Positions 6,324 through 53,250 are shown, numbered from the stretch's first letter. The stretch is DNA of 64,000 nucleotides from an uncultured Bacilli bacterium (GCA_910580185.1 CAJTWC010000003.1:34304-98303); one strand, 5' to 3'. Notes: generated from the sequence alone by a model not told the origin. Numbers and translations are program-made.

Positions 6324-6404
6324 AATGCCTTTTTAATTTTATGTTTACAAATACAATTGTTCGTGATAAAATTAACTTGTATTAAAAATAAATGAGGTGT
6401 ATTT

Positions 6405-6956
6405 ATGTATTCATACATTAAAGGTATTGTAACAATGATAGAACCCAGTTATGTGGTTATTGAAAATAACGGAATTGGTTATATGATATATGTAGCAAAT
6501 CCATATTCATATAAAATAAATGAGGAAGTATTAATTTACTTATATCAACAAATTAGAGAAGAAGAAAACACGTTATATGGTTTTAAGAATAAGGAAGATA
6601 AAAATTTATTTTTAAAATTAATTAGTGTTAAAGGTTTAGGTTGTAAAATGGCACTTCCAATGCTTTCAGGAGATAATAAAGATAGTATTTATGATGCTAT
6701 AGAAAGTGGAAATATTAACTACTTGAAAAAATTTCCTAAGATTGGTGATAAGGTTGCAAGACAAATTATCCTTGATTTAAAAGGAAAATTAGCGGTTGAC
6801 GTAAAAGAAGTAAAACAAGATTATACCGAACTTACCGAAACTCTTAAGTCTTTGGGATATAAACCAGCTGATATTAAAAAGATACTACCTAACATTGATA
6901 TTTCAAAAACGTTAGAATCTCAAGTTAAGGAAGCTTTAAAGTTATTATTAAAATAG
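6405..6956 (+). CDS. ruvA: Holliday junction DNA helicase RuvA
   Basis: Typical RuvA N-terminus MYSYIKGIV...; size 183 aa; sits upstream of ruvB; GAGGTG RBS. Confidence 0.9.
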   Translation: MYSYIKGIVTMIEPSYVVIENNGIGYMIYVANPYSYKINEEVLIYLYQQIREEENTLYGFKNKEDKNLFLKLISVKGLGCKMALPMLSGDNKDSIYDAIESGNINYLKKFPKIGDKVARQIILDLKGKLAVDVKEVKQDYTELTETLKSLGYKPADIKKILPNIDISKTLESQVKEALKLLLK

Positions 6957-7975: not shown

Positions 7976-8855
7976 CCAAATGCTTGAAAAATTAATTAGG
8001 GTATATGATGAAAATTTTGAAAAAGATAAAGAAGAATTTATGGACGCTGATTATTTAAAGAATTATATGTATTTAGTAAAAAATTATCGCGATTTAAATA
8101 AAACTTTTTTGAATGAGAAAAACGAGGAAATTAATAAAAATATTGATGCTTTTATTAGTTTAATATTAAATATGGTAAATAATTTTAAATTTTCAGTAGA
8201 AAAGGTATGGGCTATTTTGTATGCGTACAATTTATATAAATTATATGGGTTTAAAGTAAATAATTTAACATCTGCTGACATCAACTTATTGGTTAATTTA
8301 TATATGGGATTAGATAGAAAGTATTCTTTGTCATTTCTAAATAAAATAATGGATTTTATATTTGATGCTAATTTAAAAAATGAGCTTTATGATATGAATT
8401 TATCTTTAGGTGAATTAACAAATTTTTTATTAGAACCAATAGATGAATATATTGATGAGGGCATAAATTTTAATATTCCTTTAATTTTTTATATTAAAGA
8501 AGAAATTAAAAATAAAACACAAAATAAAGTAAGTACAAAGGAAACTTTAAGATTAAATTGGGATACACCCGAAGACATTTATGATAATTTAAAAAATAAA
8601 ATAACGTCCATGGCAAATTTGATGATAAATTCTGGTTATGAAAAACAAGAACAAGAAGGCTATGAACTTCTTTCTAATTTAGGAATGTTAGTATGTAAAT
8701 TAAAGAATATGTCAGAAGAAAACTTTGGTATTTGTAGAGAAACTATTAAAATTCTAATGGAAGATGAAAAAAGAAAACTTCAAGACAAATATTATCTAAT
8801 CTTTAGCTTGATTAATCAGCTTACTACATATAATTCTAATAAAGGTATGAAATGA
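7968..8855 (+). CDS. hypothetical protein inserted between ruvB and queA
   Basis: ORF of 295 aa; its start overlaps the ruvB stop; no known motifs. Confidence 0.45.
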
Positions 8856-32224: not shown

Positions 32225-32230
32225 ATAAAT

Positions 32231-32409
32231 GCCTAAAGGTATCGGGCGCTAGCACATTTAACCCGCTAAGATTTAATAGGGAATCAGAATCAATAGTGGT
32301 GTTCATGCTTAAATTTATTTAAGAAGTCTAAAACTATTGTGGGATGCCCACCTGCGAGAATTGCAGGTTTATCTTGTTAGCAAACGACCCTTTGGGTTCT
32401 TTTTTTTTA
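32231..32409 (+). ncRNA. candidate stand-alone structured small RNA of about 180 nt, identity undetermined
   Basis: The locally GC-richer segment lies between a strong promoter and an intrinsic terminator (ACGACCC-UUU-GGGUUCU followed by U9). It contains adjacent hairpins GUGGG-AUGC-CCCAC and CCUGC-GAGAAUU-GCAGG. There is no long ORF, and the downstream gene has its own TTGACG/TAACAT promoter. Confidence 0.35.
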
Positions 32410-37686: not shown

Positions 37687-38571
37687 ATGAATAGAAATAT
37701 TGAAGAATATATAAATTATATATATATTGAAAAAAAACTAAGTGATAATACAAAAGATGCATATCAAAGGGATTTATTATCATTCTCTAATTTTTTAAAT
37801 AACAAAAAAATTAATAACATTACTACTAATGACATAAGAGATTATATAAACCATTTAAGTGATAATAATGATAAGGATAAAACGATTGCAAGAAAAGTAG
37901 TTAGTATAAGAACCTTTTTTGATTATTTGATGAGAGAAAATAAAATAAGTACTAATCCTTGTGAAAAAATAGAATTACCAAAAATCAAAAAAACTCTTCC
38001 TAAAACGTTATCAGAAGAAGAAATAAATATGCTATTAGATTTTAAGCCTAATACGGCGTTAGAGCATCGTAACAAAGCAATGCTTGAGCTTGCATATGGT
38101 TGTGGTTTACGTGTCTCAGAACTTGTTAATTTGTCCTTAAATGATATTAATTTAGAAGATGATTATATAAGAATATTTGGTAAAGGGAAAAAAGAAAGAA
38201 TAGTACCTATGGCAACTATTACTACTAATATATTAGAAGAATATATAAACGTATATAGAAATAGTCTATTAAAAGGATATCTTACTGATAAACTATTTAT
38301 CAGTAGCTATGGAAAGGCTATAACAAGACAGGGATTCTTTAAAATGCTTAAAAAGCATGCTAAAGAAATGGGAATAGAAAAAGACTTTTCTCCTCATACT
38401 TTAAGACATTCTTTTGCAACTGAATTACTGGAATATGGTGCAGATCTTAGAAGTGTAGGAGAGATGTTAGGCCATGAAAATATTAAAACTACTCAAATAT
38501 ATACACATTTATCAAATAATAAATTAAAAAAAGATTATGAGGAATATCATCCTAGAAATAAAAAAATATAA
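37687..38571 (+). CDS. xerD: site-specific tyrosine recombinase, XerD/XerC-like
   Basis: C-terminal catalytic region HTLRHSFATELLEYGADLRSVGEMLGHENIKTTQIYTH with the R..H..R..Y residues; 294 aa; N-terminal core-binding domain. Confidence 0.8.
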   Translation: MNRNIEEYINYIYIEKKLSDNTKDAYQRDLLSFSNFLNNKKINNITTNDIRDYINHLSDNNDKDKTIARKVVSIRTFFDYLMRENKISTNPCEKIELPKIKKTLPKTLSEEEINMLLDFKPNTALEHRNKAMLELAYGCGLRVSELVNLSLNDINLEDDYIRIFGKGKKERIVPMATITTNILEEYINVYRNSLLKGYLTDKLFISSYGKAITRQGFFKMLKKHAKEMGIEKDFSPHTLRHSFATELLEYGADLRSVGEMLGHENIKTTQIYTHLSNNKLKKDYEEYHPRNKKI

Positions 38572-38658
38572 TTTCCGAAAATCTTACGATTAAATAAAAA
38601 ACATTGCTAATAAAAATATAATTTGTTATAATAACCACCATATAAGGTGGTTATTATT

Positions 38659-40527
38659 ATGGAGCAAAAGGAAAAAACAATTTTATTCGTCATAGATGTT
38701 AGTGAAATAATAAATTCAAATGTTAATTATGATGATATTAAATATTTCTATGAAAAAATAAATAATAAAAGAGAATATGAAAAGGCAGATAAAATAACCA
38801 TAGTTATAACTGATTTTAAGTGTAATAGCACACGTGATGACTTATGTGAATATGGATTGCAATTAAAACAAATATTAGGACATGATATTAATTTTTATCG
38901 TTATAATTATACTCAAGCTGATAAAAACACTGACTTTTCTAATATGACAAGCTATCAAATGCAGTGCACTAACAATCATCATAAATATAATTTTATACTT
39001 AATATAATTAATAAAGTTAGTAAAAAATATAACGTAGTATATACTGCTTTAATGCATGATTTAAATATTTTTGATACATCAGAGGAATTCCAAGCTAAAG
39101 AAGAGATAAAAGCCATAAATAATATTTGTAAATTTGATTTATTACTTAACTCTAACAGAGTAAATAATTTACAAAATACTTACAATGATCATCTAGTTAT
39201 ATCAAGTAATAATAACCTATATGGATATGCTGAAAGTTTAGCGGTTAAGATGGATTTCGACAATGGTATAATGCCAAATGAAACATACCGAGAATATAAT
39301 TTAAAAAATAAAAAACAAAAGAAAGATATGCTAATTATAATTGATGCATACAATATGGGTATGTATGAAGATTTATATGATGATTTATTAAATAATATTA
39401 TTTCTAAAAAACAAGAAGTAGGAGCTGATGATATATATATCGTAGTTTCTAGTCGAGTGCCTAACTATTTTACAAAAGATGAATTAAAAGAAATAGGACG
39501 TGAGATCCGATATATATTAGGGGATGAAGCTAAATATTACGTTAATGAATACGCTTCTAATGATAATCATCAATCAACTCTTAATTCATCTAATAATCTT
39601 TATTTAAATCATGCAATTGAAACAAAAAATTCATTTTCAAAAAAATATAAAGCTAATTTTATATATACTGCATACTTTACTAACGCTTTATCTTATAATA
39701 ATATTAACATATTTAATAAAGAGAAAATGAATGATTCAAAAATAGATTTTTTTGCTCATAGTGCTGAAAAAGATATAAATGGCGTAGTATGTTCAAATGT
39801 TAATGGGCTTGATGCGCTTAATGATTGCTTAATATACTCTATGAATAAAGATAATTATAAAGATAATGATACATCAGTTAATAATAAAGAAATAACTGTA
39901 TTTTACTGTGATATAGCTGGTACTATAGATTATATAACTCATAATAAGGATATGATTAAAACTTTAAATGATAAATTAATAGAATTAAACCAAACTCATG
40001 GTACTAATAAAATATTGTTATGTTTAATAACTAATGATAGTGATTTAAATTATTTGAATGGTTTCATAAATGAATTAAAAAATAAAATAGATTCTAGTAT
40101 TATTTTTACTGACCATTTCTATGTTGAAGGAGCATTAATAAATGGAAAATTAGTACAAGAAGGTGGAAGTGTTGGATATAACAAATTTGGAAAAATTAAA
40201 TATCACCTAAATAAATTAATAAACAATGGATATAAAATCAACTATGTATATTTTGCAGATGATAATATGGATGAATATGATGTATTTAGTTTTGATGAAT
40301 ATTTGCCTAATGAGACTAATGGCCGGTTATTAATCCCAGATAATAATTGTAATATAATAGAAAATTATATAATCCCATCTGAATTCCAAAATATAGATGG
40401 ATTAATAGATTGCATAAACAAGAGTATTGAATTAGAATGTTCTAAAGAAAAAGGAATAGCATATAAAAAACAATACATTGCAAAAACAACCGAGGTAGAA
40501 GATGACGATGATGATTTACCATTTTAA
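38659..40527 (+). CDS. large Asn-rich protein with three internal repeats of a HAD-like domain (paralog family member 1)
   Basis: Repeats begin ILFVIDVS, LIIIDAYNMG and ITVFYCDIAGT; the last repeat has DxxGT, a downstream LITND motif, YFADD, and a C-terminal GLIDCINK motif shared with the next two genes; AGGTGG RBS lies inside the hairpin at 38632-38653. Confidence 0.45.
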   Translation: MEQKEKTILFVIDVSEIINSNVNYDDIKYFYEKINNKREYEKADKITIVITDFKCNSTRDDLCEYGLQLKQILGHDINFYRYNYTQADKNTDFSNMTSYQMQCTNNHHKYNFILNIINKVSKKYNVVYTALMHDLNIFDTSEEFQAKEEIKAINNICKFDLLLNSNRVNNLQNTYNDHLVISSNNNLYGYAESLAVKMDFDNGIMPNETYREYNLKNKKQKKDMLIIIDAYNMGMYEDLYDDLLNNIISKKQEVGADDIYIVVSSRVPNYFTKDELKEIGREIRYILGDEAKYYVNEYASNDNHQSTLNSSNNLYLNHAIETKNSFSKKYKANFIYTAYFTNALSYNNINIFNKEKMNDSKIDFFAHSAEKDINGVVCSNVNGLDALNDCLIYSMNKDNYKDNDTSVNNKEITVFYCDIAGTIDYITHNKDMIKTLNDKLIELNQTHGTNKILLCLITNDSDLNYLNGFINELKNKIDSSIIFTDHFYVEGALINGKLVQEGGSVGYNKFGKIKYHLNKLINNGYKINYVYFADDNMDEYDVFSFDEYLPNETNGRLLIPDNNCNIIENYIIPSEFQNIDGLIDCINKSIELECSKEKGIAYKKQYIAKTTEVEDDDDDLPF

Positions 40528-40547
40528 TAAAGAAGGAAAATGATAAT

Positions 40548-41162
40548 ATGAAACATAATAAAGAAAAAGTGATGGTATTTTTTAGTGATATATCGGGCAC
40601 TTTCAATTTAGACTTAATGTCTATAAATAATTTTGATATATATAATGAAATAAAAGTTTTATTGGAACAAGCAAGAAGAAAATTAGGTTTAGATAAAATT
40701 ATTTTCTGCTTTATTACCGCTGATGAAAGAATTAATCTTTTATTAAATTATGTAAAAATTTTTCAAGAACATATCGAAACAGATAACATAGTTTTAGGAT
40801 TACAATTTTATATGACTGGCAAAATTAAATTATTAAAGAATAGAAACTTTATAGTTAAAAAAGACTATGATGACACTTTAAAGGAAAATAAAATAAAAAG
40901 ATACGTAGAAGAATTAAAAAATGAATACATAGTATCCAACGTGGTCTTTGCGGATGATTTTGCTAATTATGATACAGAAAATAATATTAAAGAATTATTA
41001 AATGATGATAAAATTGAAACAACTGTTTTAATACCTTGTGCAAGTGGTAATTTTAATAATAAAACATTTACTTCATCATTAGTTGGAATAAGCGGATTAA
41101 TTGAATGTATAAAAAAATATGATTCATACATAGATGACGCAGATAATCTCAAAATAAAATAA
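40548..41162 (+). CDS. HAD-like paralog 2 (degenerate motif I DxxGT)
   Basis: VMVFFSDISGTFNLD (motif I-like), IIFCFITAD (motif II-like), VVFADDFANYD (motif IV-like), C-terminal GLIECIKK. Confidence 0.45.
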   Translation: MKHNKEKVMVFFSDISGTFNLDLMSINNFDIYNEIKVLLEQARRKLGLDKIIFCFITADERINLLLNYVKIFQEHIETDNIVLGLQFYMTGKIKLLKNRNFIVKKDYDDTLKENKIKRYVEELKNEYIVSNVVFADDFANYDTENNIKELLNDDKIETTVLIPCASGNFNNKTFTSSLVGISGLIECIKKYDSYIDDADNLKIK

Positions 41163-41212
41163 CCACCTATCAGTATAATTTATAATTCTAATAAAAAGGA
41201 GACAAAAAGGAA

Positions 41213-41875
41213 ATGGAAAATGAAAGACTAGTATTATTTTTTAGTGACGTAGAAGGAACACTAAACAAATTAGACTATGATAGTGCGCAAAAACTAAAAG
41301 CATTATTAGAAAAGAAAAGATTACATTATAAAGCCGATAAAGTAGTAGTATCTTTAGTTAGTAATTGTATGAACTGTTTCTTAGAAGAATATATTGAAAC
41401 TTTAGCTAAACCATTAGAGGATAATGAAACAATAGTTTTAGGAAGATGTTTTTCTCACGATGACATTATAGAAAATGGAGAAACCATTTATGCTTATGGA
41501 GGCGATAGTAAACCTGGGAAAATATCTAGGTATACAAATGATATAACCTTTGAGCAAGGTGCCATAGTTGCCTACGCTATGTACGCTGATGATGAAATGA
41601 CTAATGATATTATGCAAACCGTAAATGATTCATTAAAATGGGATGTAGAGTCAAAAGTTGATTTCTTTATTCCTGGCGCTAAAAAAGATAAAAACTATTT
41701 TATTGAAGAAAGAGAAAATAATAATCCCTTTATTATAGGAGGACATAAAACAAAAAAAGATAATATATTTACTTCTTCAAAACCTAACGTAAATGGTTTA
41801 ATAGAATGTATGAAAAAAAGTAGTTTTAAAGATAGTGACCCATACGAAGTTCCAACTGAAAATATAATTAAGTAA
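41213..41875 (+). CDS. HAD-like paralog 3 (degenerate motif I DxxGT)
   Basis: LVLFFSDVEGTLNKLD, VVVSLVSNC, AMYADDEMTND, C-terminal NVNGLIECMKK. Confidence 0.45.
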   Translation: MENERLVLFFSDVEGTLNKLDYDSAQKLKALLEKKRLHYKADKVVVSLVSNCMNCFLEEYIETLAKPLEDNETIVLGRCFSHDDIIENGETIYAYGGDSKPGKISRYTNDITFEQGAIVAYAMYADDEMTNDIMQTVNDSLKWDVESKVDFFIPGAKKDKNYFIEERENNNPFIIGGHKTKKDNIFTSSKPNVNGLIECMKKSSFKDSDPYEVPTENIIK

Positions 41876-41885
41876 ATATTCGTTT

Positions 41886-41916
41886 AAAAAAGTATCGATT
41901 TTTGATACTTTTTTGT
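41886..41916 (+). terminator. rho-independent terminator after the paralog cluster
   Basis: AAAAAGTATC-loop-GATACTTTTTT. Confidence 0.55.
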
Positions 41917-42026
41917 TTAAGAAAAAAGAAAGTCTACCATATTTTTAAAAGTATACGCATTGTAGGTTGAAAAAAATATGTAGAAATTTTAAAATAGTAG
42001 AGTAAAGTATGAGAGGAGTAAACATT

Positions 42027-42926
42027 ATGGACGCAAAAAAAATAGGCGAACTAATTAAGAAAAAAAGATTAGAATTAGAACTAACGCAAAATGAACTTGC
42101 CAGCAAATTAAATATAACAGATAAAGCAATTTCAAAATGGGAACAAGGATTAGGTTGCCCTGATATATCAATTGTTAAATATCTTTCTAATATATTAGGA
42201 ATTAGCACTGAAGAGCTTTTAGAAGGAGAAGAAAAAGAAGGAGGAAGTATAAATTATATTAAGAAATATAGTAATGTAAGAACAAGAAATAAAGATAGAT
42301 CGGAATCTATAATAAAATTTTGTATACTTTTCTTAGTGATATTCGCATTGTTGGGTACTATTATAAGTCTCTTAGGTAATACGTTAAAGATTTATAGCCC
42401 AGTTGATGATTTATATTTAGTGATATATGATGAGGATAATATGTCTGAATTATATAAAGATACTAAGAAAAAAATAGAAGTAATAAAAAAAGATGATAAG
42501 ATTTTATATACTAATGAAGAAAAACAAGTAATAGTAGACTATCTAACATATTTAGATAACAACATAAATGAATTAATAAAAATTATGGATAAAGATAGCA
42601 AAATTAATTTTTATAAAATACCACAATTATTTAATGACGTTTTCTCAATGTCCGGGCCTGACAAAAAAAATAAATTATCAAATATAGCTAAAATTATGAA
42701 AAAGTATACTAACAAAGGTTTTAATGACCATATAAAAACTTTTGATTCTTATGAAGAATATAGGTTGAATTTTTACAAATCATCTTTATTATCAGAGCAA
42801 TTTAATAAACCAAAATTATATTATAAAAATTACGTATCAAACGTTGATTTTAATATAGATTGGAAAATTAAGTATTTTAATGAAATTACTAATTTCTTAA
42901 TGGAAGTAGGTGAAGTAAATGAATAA
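42027..42926 (+). CDS. membrane-anchored XRE-family HTH transcriptional regulator (copy 1)
   Basis: N-terminal HTH LTQNELASKLNITDKAISKWEQG, one TM (FCILFLVIFALLGTIISLL), extracytoplasmic domain; GAGAGGAG RBS. Confidence 0.65.
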   Translation: MDAKKIGELIKKKRLELELTQNELASKLNITDKAISKWEQGLGCPDISIVKYLSNILGISTEELLEGEEKEGGSINYIKKYSNVRTRNKDRSESIIKFCILFLVIFALLGTIISLLGNTLKIYSPVDDLYLVIYDEDNMSELYKDTKKKIEVIKKDDKILYTNEEKQVIVDYLTYLDNNINELIKIMDKDSKINFYKIPQLFNDVFSMSGPDKKNKLSNIAKIMKKYTNKGFNDHIKTFDSYEEYRLNFYKSSLLSEQFNKPKLYYKNYVSNVDFNIDWKIKYFNEITNFLMEVGEVNE

Positions 42927-43353
42927 TAAAAAATTTACTATATTAACAACAGTATCAACTATAATAATTTGGATTATCCTTAGTTTGCTTATAAGTATTA
43001 GTAATAACATTCATTATGATTATAATGTTTATTATTATTTAATTGAACATCCATATTTTATAATAACTTTCACAATATTAATAATTTTTCTTTTGGTTTA
43101 TTTATTTTATAATAAATACAAAATAAGGTTTTTTTATTCGAAAAATTTAAATATATATATAAACGTAGTAAATATAACGTTCATCTTACTTAGTTTGATA
43201 GATTTATGTTTATCAATTTATTTAACTAATATATATAATACAGAATTTTATTATGAGAATTTTTACATGGTGCAATGCTCAATAATATATAACATCATTT
43301 ATTTGCTACTTATCATATGGATATTTACTTTAAAGAAAAAGAGGATAAAATAA
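42919..43353 (+). CDS. small polytopic membrane protein partner of the XRE regulator (copy 1)
   Basis: 144 aa with 4 TM helices; its start overlaps the regulator stop by 8 nt. Confidence 0.4.
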   Translation: MNNKKFTILTTVSTIIIWIILSLLISISNNIHYDYNVYYYLIEHPYFIITFTILIIFLLVYLFYNKYKIRFFYSKNLNIYINVVNITFILLSLIDLCLSIYLTNIYNTEFYYENFYMVQCSIIYNIIYLLLIIWIFTLKKKRIK

Positions 43354-43354
43354 G

Positions 43355-44500
43355 ATGAAAAAAACAGATATAGGCAAAATAATAAAAGAAAATAGATTAA
43401 AACTTGGAATAACACAAGAAGAACTTGCAAAAAAATTAAAAGTAAGTAATAAAGCTGTCTCTAAGTGGGAATCTGGAAAATCATCACCTAAAGTAAACAT
43501 TTTAAAAGAATTATCAAGCATTTTAGATGTAGATTTTTCTAATTTCATAGAAGAAAATGAGAAAAACAACATAAATGAATATGAATATTCAATCACGTAT
43601 AAAACTGATACAAATTTTTATAAGATAAGAAACACTTTAAAATCTATCCTTATGGTTTTAATGATAAGTATTCTATCAATATATGTGTCAATAATTTATA
43701 TGCAAGAAAAAGGTGCAAATATAAATAATGAATATTTAACTCTAAACGGATATAAAGCATTAAAAAAAGAAAATAATGAAATAATAAATAAATGCGATTA
43801 CATACTAAATAACTATGAAAAAGTAAAATTTAGTAAAAATGAAAATAAAGTAATTAAAAAAAACGGAAAAAATTATAGAGGAAAATATGAAATAATTAGA
43901 GAATATTATGATTTATTTAGTTATGAAACTTATTCATATATTAATGATGATGAAAATTTTGAAGAAGAAGAGGCCGAAAAACTTTCATTATATAATTATA
44001 TATATTGGAATGTAAAAAGACTCAAAGATTTTACAATATATAAGCAAGAATTACTAGATGAATTATGGAATAATAAAAAAGAAAGCAATTATAATTCTAG
44101 GTTTACTCTTGATTTTATAAATAAATATATAAACTATAAGGACAAAAATCTATTAAAAGGTAATACTAGCTGTCTTTATGGCATTGACGGATATTCAGAT
44201 GGTGAGTATTGTTCTAACATTGATATAAATGGTATTTATGATATTTTATGGTATTATGGAAATAAAGAAGAAATGAAAAAGGAATTAACTAATCAAAAAA
44301 GAAATAGAAAAGCCTCTGGTAGTATTATCTCGGATAATTATCAATATAATGCTTTTTCATATAAAGTTATGAAGTTAAATGCACTAGGACGTTTTTCTGA
44401 CAATTCAATTGCTGATTTGCAAAATGCTTTATTAGTAATTGATGATGCGAACATAAAACTATTAGATGATATTATTAAAGTAGGTGGAATAAATGAATAA
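43355..44500 (+). CDS. membrane-anchored XRE-family HTH transcriptional regulator (copy 2)
   Basis: HTH ITQEELAKKLKVSNKAVSKWESG, TM, larger C-terminal domain. Confidence 0.65.
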   Translation: MKKTDIGKIIKENRLKLGITQEELAKKLKVSNKAVSKWESGKSSPKVNILKELSSILDVDFSNFIEENEKNNINEYEYSITYKTDTNFYKIRNTLKSILMVLMISILSIYVSIIYMQEKGANINNEYLTLNGYKALKKENNEIINKCDYILNNYEKVKFSKNENKVIKKNGKNYRGKYEIIREYYDLFSYETYSYINDDENFEEEEAEKLSLYNYIYWNVKRLKDFTIYKQELLDELWNNKKESNYNSRFTLDFINKYINYKDKNLLKGNTSCLYGIDGYSDGEYCSNIDINGIYDILWYYGNKEEMKKELTNQKRNRKASGSIISDNYQYNAFSYKVMKLNALGRFSDNSIADLQNALLVIDDANIKLLDDIIKVGGINE

Positions 44501-44912
44501 AATTTTAAAAATACTAATTTACTTATTATCTATTACGTCAACTATTTTATTGATTTACTATTATAAGTCTTATGATACTATTTATATATCTGATATCGTA
44601 AAATTAATTATATTGGTTTTATTTATTAACCTATATATTACAATAATTAATATTAAGAAAAACATAAATAAATACAAAGTATATAATAATTCATATATAT
44701 TTTATTTGATAATATCATTAGCTTTAATAGGAAGTATAATATATGGAATGCATTTAAACAATATATATTTAAATTTAACATCTTATGATCAATATGTAGG
44801 TACAACGTTTGATAGCTTTTTTATAAAAACTTTTAAATCTTTATATTTTATTTTTTCTATATATTTAATTTTAAGTTTCAAAAGTAAAAAAATAATAATA
44901 AAAAAAAGATAA
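44493..44912 (+). CDS. small polytopic membrane protein partner (copy 2)
   Basis: 139 aa with 4 TM helices; overlaps the upstream stop by 8 nt. Confidence 0.4.
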   Translation: MNKILKILIYLLSITSTILLIYYYKSYDTIYISDIVKLIILVLFINLYITIINIKKNINKYKVYNNSYIFYLIISLALIGSIIYGMHLNNIYLNLTSYDQYVGTTFDSFFIKTFKSLYFIFSIYLILSFKSKKIIIKKR

Positions 44913-44993: not shown

Positions 44994-45755
44994 ATGCCAA
45001 ATAGCACATTATATGCTTTTATTTTGTCTTTTTTAGCGGGTATATCAACCGTTATAGGGGCTTTTCTTATATTTTTTGATAAAAATAGGAATAATAAACT
45101 AGTAACAATAAGTTTATCTTTTGCTGCAGGAGTTATGATATGCGTATCATTAACTGACTTGCTACCAAATAGTTTTAATATGATTTTAAGTAGTAATAAC
45201 TCTTTTCCAAAACTAATATTAACACTTATATTTATGGTTATTGGAATAATTATTTCTATGTTAATCGATAAATACTTACCAAGCGAATACGAAAACAAAG
45301 ATAACAAAGGATTATATAAAATAGGAATAATAAGCATGGTTGCAATTATTCTTCATAATATTCCAGAAGGTATTGCAACGTTTATCACTTCTACTAATAA
45401 TTTAAGTTTAGGAATAACACTAACACTTGCAATAGCACTTCATAATATTCCGGAAGGAATATCAATTGCCGTTCCAATATATCATTCTACTGGTAATAAG
45501 TTAAAAGCAATTATGTATGCACTATTATCTGGTATGAGTGAGGTAGTAGGAAGCATATTAGCATACCTTTTTTTAGCGCCTTTTATAAACGATCACATAA
45601 TGGCCTCTTTATATGCGATAATAGCAGGTATAATGATTCATATATCAGTTTATGAACTTATTCCAGGAGCATATAAAGATAGCACTTTAAAAACGGTCAT
45701 TAAGTTTTTTTTAATAGGTACAATCGTAATGTTACTAAGTCATGTTTTAATGTAA
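44994..45755 (+). CDS. zupT: ZIP-family zinc transporter ZupT
   Basis: Two HNIPEG motifs (HNIPEGIATF, HNIPEGISIA); 8 TM helices; AGGAGG RBS. Confidence 0.85.
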   Translation: MPNSTLYAFILSFLAGISTVIGAFLIFFDKNRNNKLVTISLSFAAGVMICVSLTDLLPNSFNMILSSNNSFPKLILTLIFMVIGIIISMLIDKYLPSEYENKDNKGLYKIGIISMVAIILHNIPEGIATFITSTNNLSLGITLTLAIALHNIPEGISIAVPIYHSTGNKLKAIMYALLSGMSEVVGSILAYLFLAPFINDHIMASLYAIIAGIMIHISVYELIPGAYKDSTLKTVIKFFLIGTIVMLLSHVLM

Positions 45756-45850: not shown

Positions 45851-46942
45851 ATGAAAGACGGAATCGTAGAACTTTTAAACACTCTAAGTATAAAAACAGG
45901 ATATTCATATACCACCTTATCATCAGTAAACAAAAGAATTACATGGACTTTTCCTAACATGAGTTTTGACGAAAAATCAAAATTATTATTAAGTATAACA
46001 GAACTAGATGAATTTATTTTTAGAGAAGATAATAAAAGAATCCGCGTAAACGGGTATCAACTAGATATGGTTACATATGCTGTTTTAAGTGACATTTTAA
46101 CAAAAAAATACAATGAGAAAAATAAGATGATAGGAGAAATATTAGATGAATATTTAATAGAAAATAAAGATTCTTTAATGATAACACCAGAATTAAAAAA
46201 TAATTTAAAAAGCACGTTGGGAATAGGTGAAGAAACTCTTACAAAGTGTTTTTATCGGTTAAAAAAAGACCATAAAGATTTGAATTATAAAGAAATAATT
46301 GATGTAATAAAATTTTTATTACAATTTAAAGGAAAGTTTAGTTTTGTTCCGCATAAGCGTCTGGTAAAGATTAAAGATAATTTTTATAATACAACTCAAA
46401 TATCATTTATTAACACAATAATAAATATAAAAATAAATGACAAAATTGCAAATCCAGATGAAATAATTAATATTTATATGGAAATTTATGACCATAACAA
46501 AAAAATTATAGATGAACCAAAAATAAATGAAAGCATAGAAGAAACGACAAAGTTAAGAGAGTTAGAAGCTCAAATAAGTAAAAATTTAGGATATTCACCA
46601 GTTTTCTTTAAACAATTATTTAATATGTTAAAATGTAGAAATTCATCCATTAAAGATTATGATTATTTTAGTTGCTTAAATATGGTTCTAAATTTATCCT
46701 CATATGTTTATTATGAAGAATCTAAACGTTATAAAGTTGTTATTGAAAAATACAACTACAAATATAACGCTTCTACATTCTGGATAATGCTATTTGAATT
46801 AAAACTTAAAAATCCTTCTTTATCCTTAGATGATGCAGTTTTAAAAGTTATAGAACAAACTGATGGTAATATTCATTTTTCTGACGATGGAAAACAATCA
46901 AAAAATAAAGGTGCATCTATAACTAAAAAAGGTAAAATATAA
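45851..46942 (+). CDS. hypothetical protein
   Basis: AGGAGG RBS; 363 aa. Confidence 0.45.
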   Translation: MKDGIVELLNTLSIKTGYSYTTLSSVNKRITWTFPNMSFDEKSKLLLSITELDEFIFREDNKRIRVNGYQLDMVTYAVLSDILTKKYNEKNKMIGEILDEYLIENKDSLMITPELKNNLKSTLGIGEETLTKCFYRLKKDHKDLNYKEIIDVIKFLLQFKGKFSFVPHKRLVKIKDNFYNTTQISFINTIINIKINDKIANPDEIINIYMEIYDHNKKIIDEPKINESIEETTKLRELEAQISKNLGYSPVFFKQLFNMLKCRNSSIKDYDYFSCLNMVLNLSSYVYYEESKRYKVVIEKYNYKYNASTFWIMLFELKLKNPSLSLDDAVLKVIEQTDGNIHFSDDGKQSKNKGASITKKGKI

Positions 46943-46945
46943 ACT

Positions 46946-47758
46946 ATGAATTATGAATTATTAAATGAAATCATAAATTATATAGAAAAAAATTTAACAA
47001 ATAATATTGATATTAAAAAACTAGCTAAAAAGTTAGGATTAAATGATTTTATAATGGGAAGGGTATTTAGCATTGTAACTAATATATCAATTAGTGAATA
47101 CATAAGAAAAAGAAGACTATCACTAGCTTTTGAAGAACTTAAATTAACCGATAATAAAATTATTAATATAGCCTTAAAATATGGATATGATTCACACATT
47201 TCTTTTTCAAGAAGTTTTAAAAAAGAATTTGGAATAACACCTAGTAATTTAAGAAAAACAAAAGAAGAAAATTATAAGTTATTTCCTAGAATTAAATTCG
47301 GAAGTGAATTTCAAAGCAAGAACATCATTAATTATGAAATTAAAAAGATAAATGGGTTTACCATTTATGGAAAAAGTGTAAATGCTAAAACTTTTGATGA
47401 CTTGCACTATAAGATTAGAAAATTATATAATGAGCTTAGAGAAAATGGCACTTATGAACGATTTTTAAAAAGTGGGTACTATGCTTTAACATGTTATAAT
47501 AACGATCCTTTAATATACTTAGTTGGAAGCAAGCTAAAAGATAATAATCTTGATAGTTATGATGTAAAAAAAGGTGAATATGCTATATTCGAAGTTGGTT
47601 CTAAAAATCAAAAAGATATTATCAAAACGATAAAATTCATAAATGAGATATACTGTGGATCTACAAAATTAGAAATTAAAGAAGATCCGTATATTGAATG
47701 TTATACAAAAGATAATTGTTATATATACGTCCCAATAGAAAAAAAGAAACAAAACTGA
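46946..47758 (+). CDS. AraC-family transcriptional regulator with GyrI-like effector-binding domain
   Basis: N-terminal AraC HTH (ISISEYIRKRRLSLAFEEL...YGYDSHISFSRSFKKEFGITPS) and a C-terminal GyrI-like fold. Confidence 0.75.
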   Translation: MNYELLNEIINYIEKNLTNNIDIKKLAKKLGLNDFIMGRVFSIVTNISISEYIRKRRLSLAFEELKLTDNKIINIALKYGYDSHISFSRSFKKEFGITPSNLRKTKEENYKLFPRIKFGSEFQSKNIINYEIKKINGFTIYGKSVNAKTFDDLHYKIRKLYNELRENGTYERFLKSGYYALTCYNNDPLIYLVGSKLKDNNLDSYDVKKGEYAIFEVGSKNQKDIIKTIKFINEIYCGSTKLEIKEDPYIECYTKDNCYIYVPIEKKKQN

Positions 47759-47816
47759 TATATAAAATGTTTCTTTTTTTATTGATTTAATTGCTAAAAT
47801 CATAATGGTGGTATTA

Positions 47817-49505
47817 ATGATTAAAAGGTATTATAATATTTGTAAAAAAACAAGATGTATACTTTATTTCTTTTTGTTATGTTTAATTGTTTTAGGAGTA
47901 TTGAATTTAATTTTACCAATTTATGCATCTAAAATAATTGATTATTTAACCATTAAAAACTTAAATATGTTTGTTAAAACGATTATTATTTTAACAATTC
48001 TTTTTTTAGTAACAAATTTGTTTTCCTATTTTGCAAAAAAACTGTATTCAGTATTTTTTAGAGAAACGTTTATAGACGTTCATAAGATGATTATAAATAA
48101 ATTATATGATTATAATGATGAGTTAATAAACATCCCAAAAGGAAAAATAATTAGTACAACAAACATAGATGCTATTAACATAGCAGAAATGCCTGATTAT
48201 ATGTTTAACGTTTTATTTAACTTTTTACTAATAATATGCATGTTAATATTTTTTATGAAAATTAGTTTAATATTTGGTATTATTTTATTATTAGTAATTA
48301 TTATATATATGTTTTTAGCAAGCAGACTAATCAAAAAAGAGGCTCATTACATGGGAGGGCAAAGAGGATACCAAGATAAACTAACTAACTTACTTGGTCA
48401 AACATTAAATGGTATAAGAGAGATAAAAACCTTTAATATGAAATCTGGTTTAAATAGAAAATATGATACTTTAAGACGCGGTTGGGCTAGAAAATACATG
48501 TTAAAAAGAAAGTACGTAATAGCACATCAAGTTCATTTAAAGTACATAACTTATGTATCAAAAATTATCTTATACGTAGTATCAGCATATCTTTTATTTA
48601 ATAATAAAATAACTATTGGTGTAATAATTTTATTAATAAATTATTTTAATAACATTTTTTCATATGCATCTGAATTAGTAAGTGACGCATCAACCGTTAG
48701 AAATTACAATATATCATTAGATAGAGTATGTAATTTATTAGAAAATGGTAACGAAAAAAATGTATATGGAAGTGTTAATAATAATTACATTGATGGTAAA
48801 GTACTATTTAAAAACGTATCATTTTCTTATAAAGATATACCAACCATTAAGAATATTAGTTTTGAATCTAACCCTAACAAGATAACCGTTATAGCGGGTA
48901 AAACCGGGAGTGGTAAAACAACCATATTTAATATCTTATTAAGGTTATATAAACCTAATAAAGGATATGTTACCATAGATGATATAAAAATAGACGAATA
49001 TACTAAAGATGTATATTATAATAACGTATCAGTAGTTAACCAGGAAAGTTTTTTATTTAACATGAGTATCAAAGATAATTTATCTATGATTAGTAAAGAC
49101 ATTAATAAACAAATAGAAGTATGTAAAAGAGTAGGAATACATGATTTAATAGTTAAACTACCTAAAGGCTATGACACTATTTTAAGTGAGAATGCGGGCA
49201 ATTTATCAGGAGGGCAGAAAAGACTACTATCTCTTGCTAAAACACTTCTAACTGGCTCTGAAATACTTTTATTTGATGAGGTAACATCATCACTTGATCC
49301 AGGAACTACCAAAGAGATAATAAAGGTATTAAAAGACTTAAAAAAAGATCATACAATAATTATTATTACTCATAAAGAAGAGATGATGAAAATAGCCGAT
49401 GAACTAATTATATTAAATAAGGGAAGAATCGTTCAAAAAGGAAATTATAAAAGTTTAATAAATAACGCACATTTAAAAAATTTAATTGGAAAAGAAGGTA
49501 AATAA
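47817..49505 (+). CDS. ABC transporter fused permease/ATP-binding protein (multidrug-type exporter)
   Basis: Walker A GKTGSGKTT, signature LSGGQKRLL, Walker B ILLFDEVTSSLD; start is the ATG at 47817 (GGTGG upstream) or at 47805. Confidence 0.85.
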   Translation: MIKRYYNICKKTRCILYFFLLCLIVLGVLNLILPIYASKIIDYLTIKNLNMFVKTIIILTILFLVTNLFSYFAKKLYSVFFRETFIDVHKMIINKLYDYNDELINIPKGKIISTTNIDAINIAEMPDYMFNVLFNFLLIICMLIFFMKISLIFGIILLLVIIIYMFLASRLIKKEAHYMGGQRGYQDKLTNLLGQTLNGIREIKTFNMKSGLNRKYDTLRRGWARKYMLKRKYVIAHQVHLKYITYVSKIILYVVSAYLLFNNKITIGVIILLINYFNNIFSYASELVSDASTVRNYNISLDRVCNLLENGNEKNVYGSVNNNYIDGKVLFKNVSFSYKDIPTIKNISFESNPNKITVIAGKTGSGKTTIFNILLRLYKPNKGYVTIDDIKIDEYTKDVYYNNVSVVNQESFLFNMSIKDNLSMISKDINKQIEVCKRVGIHDLIVKLPKGYDTILSENAGNLSGGQKRLLSLAKTLLTGSEILLFDEVTSSLDPGTTKEIIKVLKDLKKDHTIIIITHKEEMMKIADELIILNKGRIVQKGNYKSLINNAHLKNLIGKEGK

Positions 49506-50068
49506 TGGAAACAATTGATAGCATAAAAACAAGGTGGAGTAACTATAAATATAAAAATAAAGATATTCCAAAAGATGTTATAGAAGACATATTAAATTGT
49601 GGTAGGCTTGCTCCTTCTGCTAAGAATAGACAACCTTGGTACTTTGTAGTTACAACAGGTAATACAAAGAATGAAATTACAAACATAATGCTTAGTGAAG
49701 TGGGAAGAATCACTGATAAGGATGAAATAAAAAGAATAGGGCATCCTTGTAGTCTTTTATCAACCGCAAGGACAATAAAAAAAGTTCCTGTATTAATTTT
49801 AATATTTAGACCAAATGATAAAGCTTGGGCTAAAGGAGATAGATTATCACTTGGTGCGTGTATAGAAAACATGTGCTTAAAAGCAACTGAGTTAGGTATT
49901 GGTTCTTTATGGATATTAGATACCGTATACGTTGAAAAAGAAATACAAAAAGTTACTAACCATGAAGACATGGAATTAGTGTGTGGTTTATTACTAGGAT
50001 ATCCAGATCAAAAACCCAGAAAAAAGATTAGAAAAAAATTAAAAGATATGATGGAGTGGCAAATATAA
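49505..50068 (+). CDS. nitroreductase family protein
   Basis: RLAPSAKNRQPWYFVV motif; 187 aa. Confidence 0.75.
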   Translation: METIDSIKTRWSNYKYKNKDIPKDVIEDILNCGRLAPSAKNRQPWYFVVTTGNTKNEITNIMLSEVGRITDKDEIKRIGHPCSLLSTARTIKKVPVLILIFRPNDKAWAKGDRLSLGACIENMCLKATELGIGSLWILDTVYVEKEIQKVTNHEDMELVCGLLLGYPDQKPRKKIRKKLKDMMEWQI

Positions 50069-50565
50069 TGTACGAAATAAAAGAAGTAAAACATAGTAAT
50101 AAAGACTTTATAAATTTATGCAAAAAAATAGATGAGTATCAAAACGATTTAATTCCATTAAGAAAAAATTGGGGTTTTTCTTCTCTAGATGAAATAGATG
50201 TTTTAGATAAAATATTATTAATGTATGATAATGAAAAAGCAGTAGCATCAGCTTCTATTAGAAAAGTTGATAATAATACTGCTGAATTATGCTCTATATA
50301 TACAGAAGAAGAATATAGAAATAAAGGAATATGCACTTTACTTATAAATGAGTTAATAAAGTATTTAGCCTCCAATAACTACAAGAAACTTATATTATAT
50401 ACTCTAAAAGGAAGTATACCTGCTATTTCTTTGTATAATAAGTTTGGTTTTGTAAAAATAAATATAGAAGAAAAGAAAGAAGATATGGATCACATGTCTT
50501 ATTTAAATAATGATACGTTAGAAGAAATAGATAAGTATACAGTTTATATGGAAAAGATATTATAG
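50056..50565 (+). CDS. GNAT family N-acetyltransferase
   Basis: Acetyl-CoA binding region RNKGICTLLINELIKY; 169 aa. Confidence 0.7.
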   Translation: MANIMYEIKEVKHSNKDFINLCKKIDEYQNDLIPLRKNWGFSSLDEIDVLDKILLMYDNEKAVASASIRKVDNNTAELCSIYTEEEYRNKGICTLLINELIKYLASNNYKKLILYTLKGSIPAISLYNKFGFVKINIEEKKEDMDHMSYLNNDTLEEIDKYTVYMEKIL

Positions 50566-50608
50566 TTAAAAATATAATGGTCTTTTTTATTTATAATATT
50601 AAAAAGCA

Positions 50609-50637
50609 TTGACAAAACAATAAGAATTTGTTAATAT
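50609..50637 (+). promoter_or_regulatory. near-consensus sigma70 promoter (-35 TTGACA, 17-nt spacer, -10 TAATAT)
   Basis: Read directly; lies upstream of the ORF at 50670. Confidence 0.5.
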
Positions 50638-50669
50638 AACGCCGTTAGGTTACTTAAGAGGGGGATACA

Positions 50670-51071
50670 ATGAAAATATTTAAAAACTTTGAAAATGATG
50701 AAACTAATAAATATATGATTAAAAATTACAATTTAAAAAATGTCAATAAAAAAAAGCTTGCATATTTAATTTTGGTTCCAGTGATTATTTGTGGTAGTAT
50801 TATTGGTACAGCTACCACCGTTAAAGCTTCGCAAATAGAGGATAATTATTATAATAAAAAAGAAACTAGTAGTATAATGTATGTTGATGAAAATACGAAC
50901 AAATTAGCATATCAAACAGATAAAAGTCATAAAGAAAATAATAATCTGCGTTTTATTGATTCTGAAGAGAATAGTGAATTATTAGATTATATTGCGCTTG
51001 GTGTAAGTTGTACAGCATTAGGATTATCAGTAGCCAATTTTGCAAACATACTAAGTAAAAGAAAAAGATAA
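50670..51071 (+). CDS. hypothetical secreted or membrane protein
   Basis: N-terminal TM or signal peptide and a C-terminal hydrophobic segment plus KRKR; AGAGGGGGA RBS. Confidence 0.4.
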   Translation: MKIFKNFENDETNKYMIKNYNLKNVNKKKLAYLILVPVIICGSIIGTATTVKASQIEDNYYNKKETSSIMYVDENTNKLAYQTDKSHKENNNLRFIDSEENSELLDYIALGVSCTALGLSVANFANILSKRKR

Positions 51072-51257
51072 ATAGCTAAACATTTTGGCTATTTTTATTA
51101 TAAAATAATTAAAAAAATGATTTAAGAAAAGATTATGAATAACAATATTATAGATAAAGTTATTAGAAAAAATCATATTAAATTAATAAAAGATAAATTC
51201 AATCAATAAGTCCCCTATTATTTATTAAAATTTAAGTAGGGGAGTTAAGTATAAAAA

Positions 51258-51296
51258 CATAGATGCAACACATATCAATTGCATCTATGTTTTTAT
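51258..51296 (+). terminator. strong intrinsic terminator inside a 670-bp noncoding region
   Basis: 10-bp stem ATAGATGCAA / TTGCATCTAT followed by GTTTTTATT. Confidence 0.55.
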
Positions 51297-51740
51297 TATT
51301 AATTTTCAATATATTGTTTTTATAATAAAACTAGCATGCATTTTAACGCATTTTTTATTTAAAAGATGCATAGTTGTTCATTCGGGTTTGTCTAGTGAAC
51401 TACTATTTTTCGTGATACTTCCCCTACTATGTAATTAAAACATGATAAAAAGGGGAGTAGGAGACTAATACAGCCACTTTTTTTAATAAGAGTGATGATT
51501 TATATATAATTTTTTCAAAACCATTTAAGATAGGTTAAAAATAATTAATAATAATTTTAAAAGATTTATATTTGAGTTTAGTTGCTTATACAGATAACAC
51601 ATATAACACAATCACGAAAGTGGATTTAATAGATTAGTAAATAAACATAATAAAAAGATAACTATAAAATAGCTATCTTAAATTCAAAATTAAAATGTTA
51701 ACATAATATGTATTATACGAACTAAAATATAGTAGTGTAC

Positions 51741-52508
51741 TTAAACATCGCGAGACTGTATTTCAGCTATCTTAGCTAATACTTCCGATGCATTTGTTTG
51801 ATTGATTTCTGTGTATCCTAACTCATGTAATGCTTGTATCTTAGCTGAATTTATTTCTTGAGTTCTAGAAAGTTTTTCTTCGTTCTTGTGTTCTATTTCT
51901 GCTACAAACTTCTTATGTTGTTCGGCAAGTTTTGTTTTTGATGCGCCACCATTACGGTATAAAGTCATTGCTGAATGCATAATACTTTCAAAAATAAATT
52001 GTTCTTCCTCATTAAATGTATATTCTTCTGGATCAACAAAGCCTAATAGTTTATCAATATATCCCATCATATATTTTAACTCTTTAACATTTTCTAATCC
52101 TTGGACAAAATTAAGTAAATATTTATATGTTAAATATGCGTCATTAGAATTTTCTATAAAACGTTCTTTTATTAAGAAAATAATGTCATTTAATAATTCT
52201 TGTTCTCTTGGCTTTAATTCTTTAAATTCTATTGATTCTGAATGAGTTACACTTATATTAGATGCGTCACCATTTAATACCATATCAACCTTATTTATAA
52301 ATTCAGCATCTACTTTTATATTATCTATATCAGTAGCCTCTTTAATATCCAATAAATTAAATAATTTCATTTTTTTATCTTTTGGCCATCTAGAAATATC
52401 ATTCATTTCTAAATAATTATAAATCATTTGGCGAGATACACCTAAATATTTTGCAAGTTTAACTTTAGAAATCCCTACCTCTTGTAAAATTTCGTTAAGT
52501 TTATCCAT
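51741..52508 (-). CDS. putative DNA-binding protein with N-terminal HTH
   Basis: N-terminus VGISKVKLAKYLGVSRQMIYNYL is a helix-turn-helix; GAGGAG RBS. Confidence 0.45.
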   Translation of the reverse strand: MDKLNEILQEVGISKVKLAKYLGVSRQMIYNYLEMNDISRWPKDKKMKLFNLLDIKEATDIDNIKVDAEFINKVDMVLNGDASNISVTHSESIEFKELKPREQELLNDIIFLIKERFIENSNDAYLTYKYLLNFVQGLENVKELKYMMGYIDKLLGFVDPEEYTFNEEEQFIFESIMHSAMTLYRNGGASKTKLAEQHKKFVAEIEHKNEEKLSRTQEINSAKIQALHELGYTEINQTNASEVLAKIAEIQSRDV

Positions 52509-52617
52509 AATTCTCTCTCCTCTACTCTATCTACTCTAACTATAATTTTACACTTTTTTACATTTTTGTCAACTTTTGTACAAAAAAATAATAGAATTAT
52601 AAATTCTATTATTGGTT

Positions 52618-53250
52618 TCATATTAAAAACGTAAATAATTTTAATAATACCGGTGTTATATAAGCATCAACTAATGATATAGTTATAATTAAAATCAATG
52701 ATATTATAAAAGCTAGAAAATATCTACCAATAAAAGTTTTGAAATCTAAACTTTTTTTAGTAAGTAAAGATTTTAAAAATTTAATAGATACATATACTGA
52801 GAAAAATGATAAAAATAAATAAATCAGTATAAATGCTACATGGCAAGGAAATATATATAATAATGAACCTAAAATACCTTTTAATGAATATTTATATATT
52901 ATAGTTCCTATTGTAAGACCAGTTGTAAAACCCTTAAAAAATAATATCAGAATAACCGCAAATATACCTATCATAGAAATTCCTAAAATAAAAATTATAG
53001 TAATTTGAATTATATTATTTATCAAAATACTTTCAAATGCACCTAGTCCAAATATACTTTTATCAAGAGTTTTAACACAAGTAAAAAATTCTCCTACTTC
53101 ATCTACTAATATTTTTTTATCAGCATTTCCAATAAAATTTATAAAGAGTGAGCCAAATATTAATCCTACCAAAAATATTATTATATTAAATATTATAATT
53201 TTCTTTTCTTTTTTTAATAGTTCGTTTAAATAGTTTATTAATTTCTTCAT
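52618..53250 (-). CDS. SpoIIM/DUF95-like polytopic membrane protein
   Basis: 210 aa, about 6 TM helices, N-terminal pattern resembling stage II sporulation protein M; AGGGAG RBS. Confidence 0.35.
   Translation of the reverse strand: MKKLINYLNELLKKEKKIIIFNIIIFLVGLIFGSLFINFIGNADKKILVDEVGEFFTCVKTLDKSIFGLGAFESILINNIIQITIIFILGISMIGIFAVILILFFKGFTTGLTIGTIIYKYSLKGILGSLLYIFPCHVAFILIYLFLSFFSVYVSIKFLKSLLTKKSLDFKTFIGRYFLAFIISLILIITISLVDAYITPVLLKLFTFLI

Follow-up and report, generated by a model that had tools for sequence, protein, structure and literature searches.

Introduction

What do two neighbouring gene pairs do, each encoding a membrane-anchored XRE-type regulator that overlaps a small membrane protein, and how did they come to stand side by side? 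The pairs, reg1–mem1 and reg2–mem2, occupy positions 42027–44912 in a 64,000-nucleotide stretch of DNA from an uncultured Bacilli bacterium (GCA_910580185.1, CAJTWC010000003.1:34304-98303), which is referred to here as the window and whose positions are counted from its first letter. An earlier note on this DNA had described a two-gene module repeated in architecture, and that description holds. ORF (open reading frame) calls on the window reproduced the four genes, all on the plus strand; the same four products were obtained when genes were called independently on four further assemblies of this organism, and the arrangement of a helix-turn-helix (HTH) domain, a transmembrane (TM) segment and an overlapping gene for a four-TM partner occurs twice.

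On balance, we lean towards the reading that each module consists of a membrane-tethered XRE regulator that would act at an operator in its own promoter, its activity being governed jointly by the outer domain and by a polytopic partner translated along with it. DNA binding, contact between regulator and partner, the kind of signal and the sign of regulation are all features that we infer. Control of transcription from within the membrane is predicted, and it finds indirect support in a palindrome conserved at the regulator's own promoter.

Two membrane-anchored regulators with overlapping partners

The first regulator, Reg1 (299 aa, 42027–42926, plus strand), comprises an XRE HTH domain (residues 1–65, 42027–42221), a linker, a TM segment (residues 95–117, 42309–42377) and an extracytoplasmic domain (residues 118–299, 42378–42923), as assigned from its HTH_3 match, its membership of the family described below and a structural model obtained with AlphaFold2 (AF2). 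Reg2 (381 aa, 43355–44500, plus strand) carries an XRE HTH domain at 43355–43549, a TM segment at residues 97–116 (43643–43702) and an orphan outer domain of 265 aa with three cysteines. Pfam recognizes an N-terminal HTH_3 domain (PF01381) in both proteins, with E-values of 9e-13 for Reg1 and 7e-16 for Reg2, and each contains a single hydrophobic segment, with hydropathy peaks over 19 residues of 2.94 and 2.50, respectively. The N-terminal flank of this segment holds five Lys and Arg residues in Reg1 and four in Reg2, and the C-terminal flank only one, so that the positive-inside distribution predicts an N-in/C-out topology, with a cytoplasmic HTH domain and an outer C-terminal domain.

The partners Mem1 (144 aa, 42919–43353) and Mem2 (139 aa, 44493–44912), also encoded on the plus strand, are predicted from hydropathy and charge distribution to contain four TM segments each. 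Their Lys and Arg residues are limited to the N-terminus, loop 2 and the C-terminus, predicting an N-in/C-in topology that is alike in both, and their outer loops are short (11–22 residues; up to 40 in the partner of locus L006). When the four proteins and their neighbours were compared with Pfam, NCBIfam and PADLOC, the four returned HTH matches only and no sensor or partner domain, and Trans_reg_C was absent from the Pfam matches of both regulators, which comprised XRE-type HTH families exclusively.

The spacing along the four genes is −8, +1 and −8 nt, a single nucleotide separating the mem1 stop from the reg2 start, and because of this tight packing reg1, mem1, reg2 and mem2 are considered one operon. 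Its 5′ boundary likely lies at an AT-rich hairpin followed by a T-run (AAAAAAGTATC-N7-GATACTTTTTT; 41886–41914, plus strand), a perfect 11-nt inverted repeat that was read directly from the sequence, was not flagged by a G+C-biased terminator scan and would serve as terminator of the upstream gene. A sigma-70-type promoter-like site (TTGAAA, 17-nt spacer, TAAAAT; 41967–41995, plus strand) is proposed from its consensus match at 10 of 12 positions. The start of reg1 is placed at 42027 rather than at an upstream ATG at 42009 because a Shine-Dalgarno sequence, GAGAGGAG, lies at 42011–42018 on the plus strand; gene callers on the other assemblies also yield a 299-aa product.

The two regulator–partner junctions are built alike. 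In the first (42908–42926, plus strand), AGGTG at 42908–42912 lies in the Val-Gly codons of reg1 and is followed by the 8-nt overlap ATGAATAA at 42919–42926; in the second (44482–44500, plus strand), AGGTG at 44482–44486 is followed by the same overlap at 44493–44500. This junction DNA, GTAGGTG[A/G]A[G/A]TAAATGAATAA, is near-identical in both modules, and the C-terminal residues …VG.INE of the regulators coincide with it. Since this stretch also supplies the partner gene with its Shine-Dalgarno sequence (AGGTG) and its start codon, the conserved C-terminal peptide of the regulators is at least partly an imprint of translational coupling. The HTH_3 domain, the single TM segment and the 8-nt overlaps bear out the view of the earlier note that membrane-anchored XRE regulators are coupled here to four-TM proteins.

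A conserved palindrome next to the reg1 promoter

The earlier note had also proposed a search for palindromes upstream of 42027, and an operator-like site conserved across related loci was found there. The palindrome ATACGCATTGTAG (CTAC-N5-GTAG with one mismatch; 41953–41965, plus strand), singled out by its positional conservation, ends 1 nt before the −35 hexamer TTGAAA (41967–41972) and is centred at about −43 from the predicted transcription start. It is identical in locus L005, which belongs to a sister species. The intergenic promoter region is 95% identical between window positions 41860–42040 and L005 positions 7830–8014, while the Reg1 protein is only 82% identical, which suggests constraint on the regulatory DNA upstream of reg1.

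The palindrome was first noticed by eye on comparing loci and was then subjected to a positional enrichment test, in which the pattern CTAC-N5-GTAG was allowed one mismatch at most and had to lie within 150 nt upstream of an XRE gene. Among the 88 loci examined, 24 upstream occurrences were found, corresponding to a density of 1.83/kb against 0.166/kb elsewhere in 736 kb, an 11-fold enrichment (binomial P 2e-16, or 9e-12 after collapsing related loci). The pattern always lies 56–98 nt before the start codon, with the TTG of a −35 box one base after it. The same register is kept at about 20 independent loci. Besides the window, the palindrome is seen at positions 4028–4042 in L013, at about 3924–3938 in L093 and in some 20 further loci (L019–L094), and it is perfect in L013/L015, L047, L064 and L093. 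A generic enumeration of inverted repeats did not rise above shuffled controls, and AT-rich chance repeats were the only palindromes upstream of reg2 or downstream of mem2.

The palindrome also precedes Clostridial relatives in which a similar HTH domain is fused to DUF6320 or to a BNR/sortilin propeller, and it must therefore be regarded as a property of a broad XRE clade, which includes soluble forms of about 195 aa as well. Autoregulation is the simplest reading, because the XRE gene is the sole feature common to the loci with the palindrome. The conserved site thus points to DNA binding and autoregulation by these regulators, both of which are predictions. As for its sign, the centre of the site falls at the position, near −43, from which lambda cI bound at OR2 activates PRM; activation, and with it positive autoregulation, is therefore plausible.

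A small family of regulators paired with polytopic partners

A profile built from the linker, TM segment and outer domain, searched with HMMER against 1.84 billion representative proteins, retrieved 56 clusters. The matching proteins are mostly about 300–330 aa long, a few being truncated and none exceeding 334 aa, and most of the matches begin at residue 66; no fused HTH-polytopic forms occur among the hits of this 56-cluster family, and Reg2 is not among the clusters. Reg1 scores 238 bits (E 1e-65) against the family profile, a value to be read with its own presence in the query alignment, and shares about 31% identity over the full length with independent family members. The members are laid out as HTH domain, linker, TM segment and helical outer domain with an EVGxINE end. 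Full-length members were located by a genome scan, among the matches listed, in metagenome-assembled genomes (MAGs) of uncultured Mollicutes, Tenericutes and Bacilli with about 25–29% G+C. Reg1 has an orthologue with 82% identity in L005 (metagenome assembly GCA_037194205.1), where the order XerD, reg1, mem1 and start of reg2 is kept.

Wherever a family locus extends beyond the regulator gene, a polytopic partner gene comes next. Regulator and partner overlap by 8 nt in both modules of the window, in L005, L006, L008, L009, L010, L013/L015 and L019 and in both modules of L017, by 17 nt in L018 and by 4 nt in L023, and the coupling junction of the window recurs in L005, L006, L008, L009, L010, L013, L015 and L017. 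The partner family comprises 150-aa forms with four TM segments and 223–230-aa forms with six or seven, with the motifs IKDIIKKN..NK.YNIL, R.L.D..FL.NN, YL.QN..YF and IYRKIN. Mem1 and Mem2 resemble its members in size, in having four TM segments, in the pattern of charges and in where their genes lie. Mem2 is putatively a weak member: compared with a partner profile built without window sequences, it gave an hhalign probability of 70.6 (E 3.9e-5) with residues 1–70 colinear, and a search of 2360 ORFs by hmmsearch with the partner profile gave it an E-value of 0.056. Its gene is called in both NCBI and Logan assemblies, and the protein stands alone in its cluster. Mem1 is 94% identical to its L005 orthologue and differs from it by an in-frame indel of three codons; since Reg1 reaches only 82% in the same comparison, mem1 appears conserved as a coding sequence and is judged to be under purifying selection. 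As candidate homologues of the partners, the fused polytopic domains of the Clostridial relatives were considered and rejected, the partner profile finding no match in them and Pfam no DUF6320 in any partner.

Close to where the TM segment ends on the outer side, at least 90% of the family members carry an Asn (…LLNI…); in this column Reg1 has Thr (residue 111), and the Asn is absent from Reg2. This residue could provide a polar contact for the partner or be a feature of protease susceptibility. Helix-destabilizing residues favour site-2 proteases, and the near-invariance of the Asn would thus accord with another explanation of the modules, which we deem unlikely. According to it, the regulator is a tethered store whose HTH domain is freed to act in the cytoplasm, or is destroyed, when a surface cue elicits site-1 and then site-2 cleavage, the partner acting as a shield as TcpH does for TcpP. 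The N-in, single-pass architecture with an outer domain matches that of substrates of regulated proteolysis, and TcpH controls the abundance of TcpP by inhibiting its proteolysis (PMC11323476). On the other side stand the Thr of Reg1 and the missing Asn of Reg2, as well as the finding that in none of the inspected loci is a protease gene linked to the module; the sequence contains nothing by which release could be told apart from DNA binding by the tethered regulator.

A further possibility starts from the small size and tight coupling of the gene pairs and from matches of the HTH domains to antitoxin or defence models (MqsA, HipB, spr1629, RmrA and CapH): the small proteins might act as holin-like toxins or confer immunity, with the XRE proteins as their repressors or antitoxins. 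These matches are, however, confined to the HTH domain and remain below curated cut-offs (39 against 335 bits for spr1629). Antitoxins are soluble, whereas these regulators are anchored and bear a large outer domain, and Pfam, NCBIfam and PADLOC detect neither toxin nor effector domains in the products of the neighbouring genes. No relatives were found in 50,697 phage and 72,556 plasmid records; the phage records lacked relatives of the linker, TM segment and outer domain, and the phage repressors P22 c2, 434 repressor and lambda cI are soluble proteins with C-terminal oligomerization or peptidase domains, unlike the membrane-anchored regulators of the window. The module is moreover chromosomal, with conserved synteny and no compositional anomaly, and a role in toxin–antitoxin, immunity or defence functions seems to us quite improbable. 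The same context bears on the statement of the earlier note that the modules adjoin a recombinase island. The neighbouring recombinase is the chromosomal XerD (37687–38571; TIGR02225 of NCBIfam, 346 bits against a cut-off of 330), and no compositional break was detected around the locus; given that XerD stands in conserved synteny, the locus is not on an island and this part of the note had to be abandoned.

Outer domains without an assigned sensor fold

With the 51-sequence family alignment as input, the full-length AF2 model of Reg1 (pLDDT 82.5) displays a five-helix HTH domain, an ill-defined linker, a continuous long helix spanning residues 87–120 and an all-alpha outer domain, which folds into a six-helix bundle when modelled alone (pLDDT 79.5, pTM 0.76). 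This model resembles generic bundles only, such as Rsd, GPCR/rhodopsin cores and designed bundles (Z ≤9.3, identity ≤12%), and Foldseek returned nothing below E 0.33. Searched against PDB sequences, neither the profiles of outer domain and partner nor the Reg2 outer domain itself gave a significant match, and Pfam found nothing consistent in 41 family outer domains and 30 partners. As only generic helical bundles are matched, no known sensor fold is assigned to the Reg1 outer domain. Beyond its HTH domain, Reg2 has relatives only in its own cluster among 5.8 billion clusters, and phmmer against all fetched sequences yielded only self-matches for the Reg2 outer domain, Mem1 and Mem2. The absence of known partner domains noted earlier is thus confirmed across Pfam, NCBIfam, PADLOC and the PDB, and neither regulator belongs to a well-characterized family. 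The suggestion of an anti-sigma-like or peptide-sensing system drew no specific support from these comparisons, since no anti-sigma domain was matched in Pfam or NCBIfam and the outer domain resembles nothing more specific than the bundles mentioned.

The order of HTH domain, one TM segment and outer domain is also that of RodZ, and the modules might accordingly encode morphogenetic anchors, whose HTH domain would bind a cytoskeletal protein instead of DNA while the outer domain contacts the wall-synthesis machinery. RodZ, however, has HTH_25 and DUF4115. In Pfam, HTH_25 reached an E-value of 0.057 on Reg2 (13.7 bits against a cut-off of 24.6) and gave no match on Reg1, and DUF4115 was matched in neither regulator nor in any of the 41 family outer domains. 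The HTH_3 subtype, the all-alpha outer domain and the operator-like site speak against such an anchor, to which we accord hardly any credence.

Duplication and divergence of the modules

The comparison of the two modules proposed in the earlier note succeeded for part of their length. BLASTP aligns Reg1 and Reg2 over the HTH domain only (49% identity over 59 aa, E 4e-15) and finds no match between Mem1 and Mem2. Residues 3–109 of Reg2, covering the HTH domain, the linker and the start of the TM segment, align to the 51-sequence family profile with an hhalign probability of 98.8, and towards the C-terminus hhalign recovers the last 13 residues only, which coincide with the coupling junction. 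HTH, linker and TM start are thereby aligned, and the outer domains and partners are not. By these alignments, the N-terminal third of module 2 and its junction appear to be homologous to those of module 1, and its partner plausibly so, and the outer domains of the two regulators are, as far as sequence comparison reaches, diverged beyond detection. The duplication reading therefore draws on the homology of the N-terminal parts, on the conservation of the junction and on comparisons between loci, rather than on similarity of whole modules.

The comparative evidence comes chiefly from a second tandem pair, in locus L017 of an uncultured Tenericutes MAG (CAMYVW010000002.1), with regA/memA at 4001–5417 and regB/memB at 5502–6858. 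RegA and RegB share 54% identity over residues 1–199 and cannot be aligned thereafter, and MemA and MemB share 40% identity over their last 54 residues only. More generally, the HTH identity amounts to 88–94% in four of the five pairs compared, with outer domain and partner dropping together; between L010 and the first module of L017 (L017A), for instance, it is 91% in the HTH domain, 37% in the outer domain and 40% in the partner. L017 may thus represent an intermediate stage, and the pair in the window seems to have gone further along the same path. The earlier note had spoken of a recent duplication. The duplication itself is supported by the N-terminal homology and the junction; its recency is contradicted by the HTH identity of 45–49% and the undetectable similarity of the outer domains, and as L005, the sister species whose Reg1 is 82% identical, has the tandem arrangement too, the duplication is taken to be old.

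Comparison with known systems

Membrane-tethered regulators are widespread, with HTH as their most frequent DNA-binding domain; single-pass proteins make up 56% of them, and about 57% lack any other recognizable domain (Demey et al. 2023, PMC10269533). Reg1 and Reg2 show both architectural features by which the class of transmembrane transcription regulators (TTRs) is defined (PMC10269533), a predicted DNA-binding domain and at least one TM segment, and fall into its commonest categories (HTH, single-pass, no other domain), so that the likeness to membrane-bound one-component transducers remarked in the earlier note is well founded. The class being based on architecture, membership is silent on the outer domain, the partner and the operator-like site found here.

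The nearest parallel in organization is offered by ToxR/ToxS, VtrA/VtrC and TcpP/TcpH. VtrA and VtrC form an obligate heterodimer encoded by partially overlapping genes and belong to a fast-evolving superfamily (Kinch et al. 2022, PMC9214523). These systems share with the window a regulator that crosses the membrane once, between a cytoplasmic DNA-binding domain and an outer domain, a partner gene that lies immediately downstream and partially overlaps, and a sensor side that evolves fast next to a conserved DNA-binding side. Nevertheless, their regulators bind DNA through an OmpR/ToxR winged helix, whereas those of the window have an XRE/Cro-C1 domain (HTH_3); their partner is a single-pass protein with a lipocalin-like barrel, in contrast to the four-TM polytopic partner with short loops. 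The modelled six-helix bundle of the Reg1 outer domain is likewise unlike their outer domains, and they stem from enteric Gammaproteobacteria, while the family described here stems from low-GC Bacilli- and Mollicutes-like MAGs. Having an XRE domain rather than a winged helix and a polytopic rather than a lipocalin-like partner, the modules are not members of the VtrA/VtrC–ToxR/ToxS superfamily, and the likeness is to be taken as analogy, not as homology.

Among Gram-positive systems, the bacitracin sensor BcrR of Enterococcus faecalis resembles the window regulators in its N-terminal XRE-type HTH domain, its membrane tethering and its Firmicute origin. BcrR reportedly has four TM segments in one chain and no large outer domain, whereas the window regulators have one TM segment and an outer domain of 180–265 aa, with four TM segments residing in a separate protein. 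The pairs could therefore be imagined as split sensors, in which the TM segment of the regulator and the four helices of the partner detect perturbation of the lipid II cycle or the membrane and switch on transporter or envelope genes. In agreement with this idea, which we nonetheless hold to be improbable, close HTH relatives from Clostridia carry five to seven fused TM segments (for example, DUF6320 in L024), DNA binding by BcrR needs its membrane domain according to a statement in PMC13384398, and cell-wall or polysaccharide genes adjoin some family loci. An ABC exporter also lies 3 kb downstream of the operon, the nearest one in the window. However, this gene stands behind those for a ZIP transporter, a protein of unknown function and an AraC-type regulator, the last of which sits between the ABC gene and the operon as its regulator, and operator-like sites there, as elsewhere in the window, are not above chance. 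The rejected homology between the partners and the fused polytopic domains also tells against a split sensor, and the large outer domain would be left unexplained by a purely intramembrane sensor.

The LytTR systems HdrRM and BrsRM of Streptococcus mutans, said to have been treated by Xie et al. in 2020, are likewise two-gene cassettes of a transcription factor and a membrane protein. In them a soluble LytTR factor is reportedly sequestered by its co-transcribed membrane partner, whereas in the window the factor itself is anchored and has an XRE HTH domain. The TTR class and the logic of co-component systems are thus already known, and the searched literature held no characterized relative of an XRE-type membrane regulator with a partner. 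The XRE-based family itself, with its helical outer domain, polytopic partner and operator-like site, is uncharacterized and uncurated; it is a small, unnamed family of uncultured, Mollicutes-like gut bacteria, and its regulators are probably cell-surface-sensing proteins that control their own promoter.

Proposed mechanism

Returning to the reading of a tethered, autoregulatory XRE protein, we propose that the cytoplasmic XRE domain is tethered via one TM helix to the extracytoplasmic domain and that the four-TM partner would be made in step with the regulator, its Shine-Dalgarno sequence and start codon lying inside the last regulator codons. A regulator dimer, still membrane-bound, would most likely bind CTAC-N5-GTAG next to its own −35 box, and binding there would tune the regulator's own expression. 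The outer domain and the partner would form the input side, such that a surface or membrane cue might alter the regulator–partner complex, and the altered complex would in turn change dimerization or DNA binding. Once duplicated in tandem, the module would have diverged quickly in outer domain and partner, leaving two cassettes, presumably with different inputs.

Several observations weigh against this reading. The Reg2 outer domain is without relatives or a model, homology of the whole modules is only partly demonstrated, and the partner-family profile, from which window sequences had been left out, did not match Mem1 significantly. No conserved target genes or operon beside the module are apparent across the inspected lineages, and a scan of the whole window found nine occurrences of the pattern against 8.7 expected, which is chance level, so that no regulon can be named. 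The operator is assigned from position and conservation, and another factor could bind the site.

To our knowledge, the well-understood two-gene co-component systems all come from Gram-negative enteric pathogens. A bolder and more doubtful proposal, advanced here only tentatively, is that the modules may represent the founding co-component system of a Gram-positive or Mollicutes type, in which a tethered XRE regulator, whose helical outer domain is unclassified, would enter into an obligate complex with a dedicated polytopic partner, devoid of sequence kinship to ToxRS or VtrAC, and in which inputs would have been diversified by tandem duplication and co-divergence. The system would stand within a larger Firmicutes XRE clade, with soluble, polytopic-fused and propeller-fused members that share an autoregulatory CTAC-N5-GTAG at about −43.

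Genomic surroundings

The neighbourhoods of the family loci vary, with polysaccharide clusters on both sides in L006, L008 and L009, genes for PBP, MraY and FtsW in L010, and gidAB, parB and uvrB in L013 and L015. Upstream of reg1, three adjacent genes of unknown function (38647–41875) are paralogous, residues 411–593 of a 626-aa protein matching proteins of 204 and 220 aa (BLASTP E 1e-10 to 6e-13) and its N-terminus matching them weakly. They share an N-terminal FFSD[IV][SE]GT that is reminiscent of HAD motif I, have no match in Pfam, NCBIfam or PADLOC, and are kept as a set in L005. Downstream of the operon, a 363-aa protein (45851–46942), also without match in these three collections, is encoded between the ZIP transporter gene (44994–45755) and the AraC/GyrI-like regulator gene (46946–47758), which the ABC exporter (47805–49505) follows.

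Cumulative GC skew peaks at about 50–52 kb, and gene orientation flips from almost all plus to almost all minus at about 50000–53000 of the window. The window may thus span the replication terminus, which would fit the nearby XerD gene at 37687–38571. A 6S RNA (RF00013) at 32227–32402, scoring 65 bits against a gathering score of 46.4, stands alone among Rfam matches in the window, which yielded no tRNA genes.

Significance

Membrane-tethered regulators are numerous and very few of them have been studied. This locus offers a candidate operator, a partner and two natural paralogues for such study, and L017 followed by the window provides a natural series for the diversification of sensors after duplication. 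An operator shared across a broad XRE clade would, in addition, help to annotate many regulators in Firmicutes.

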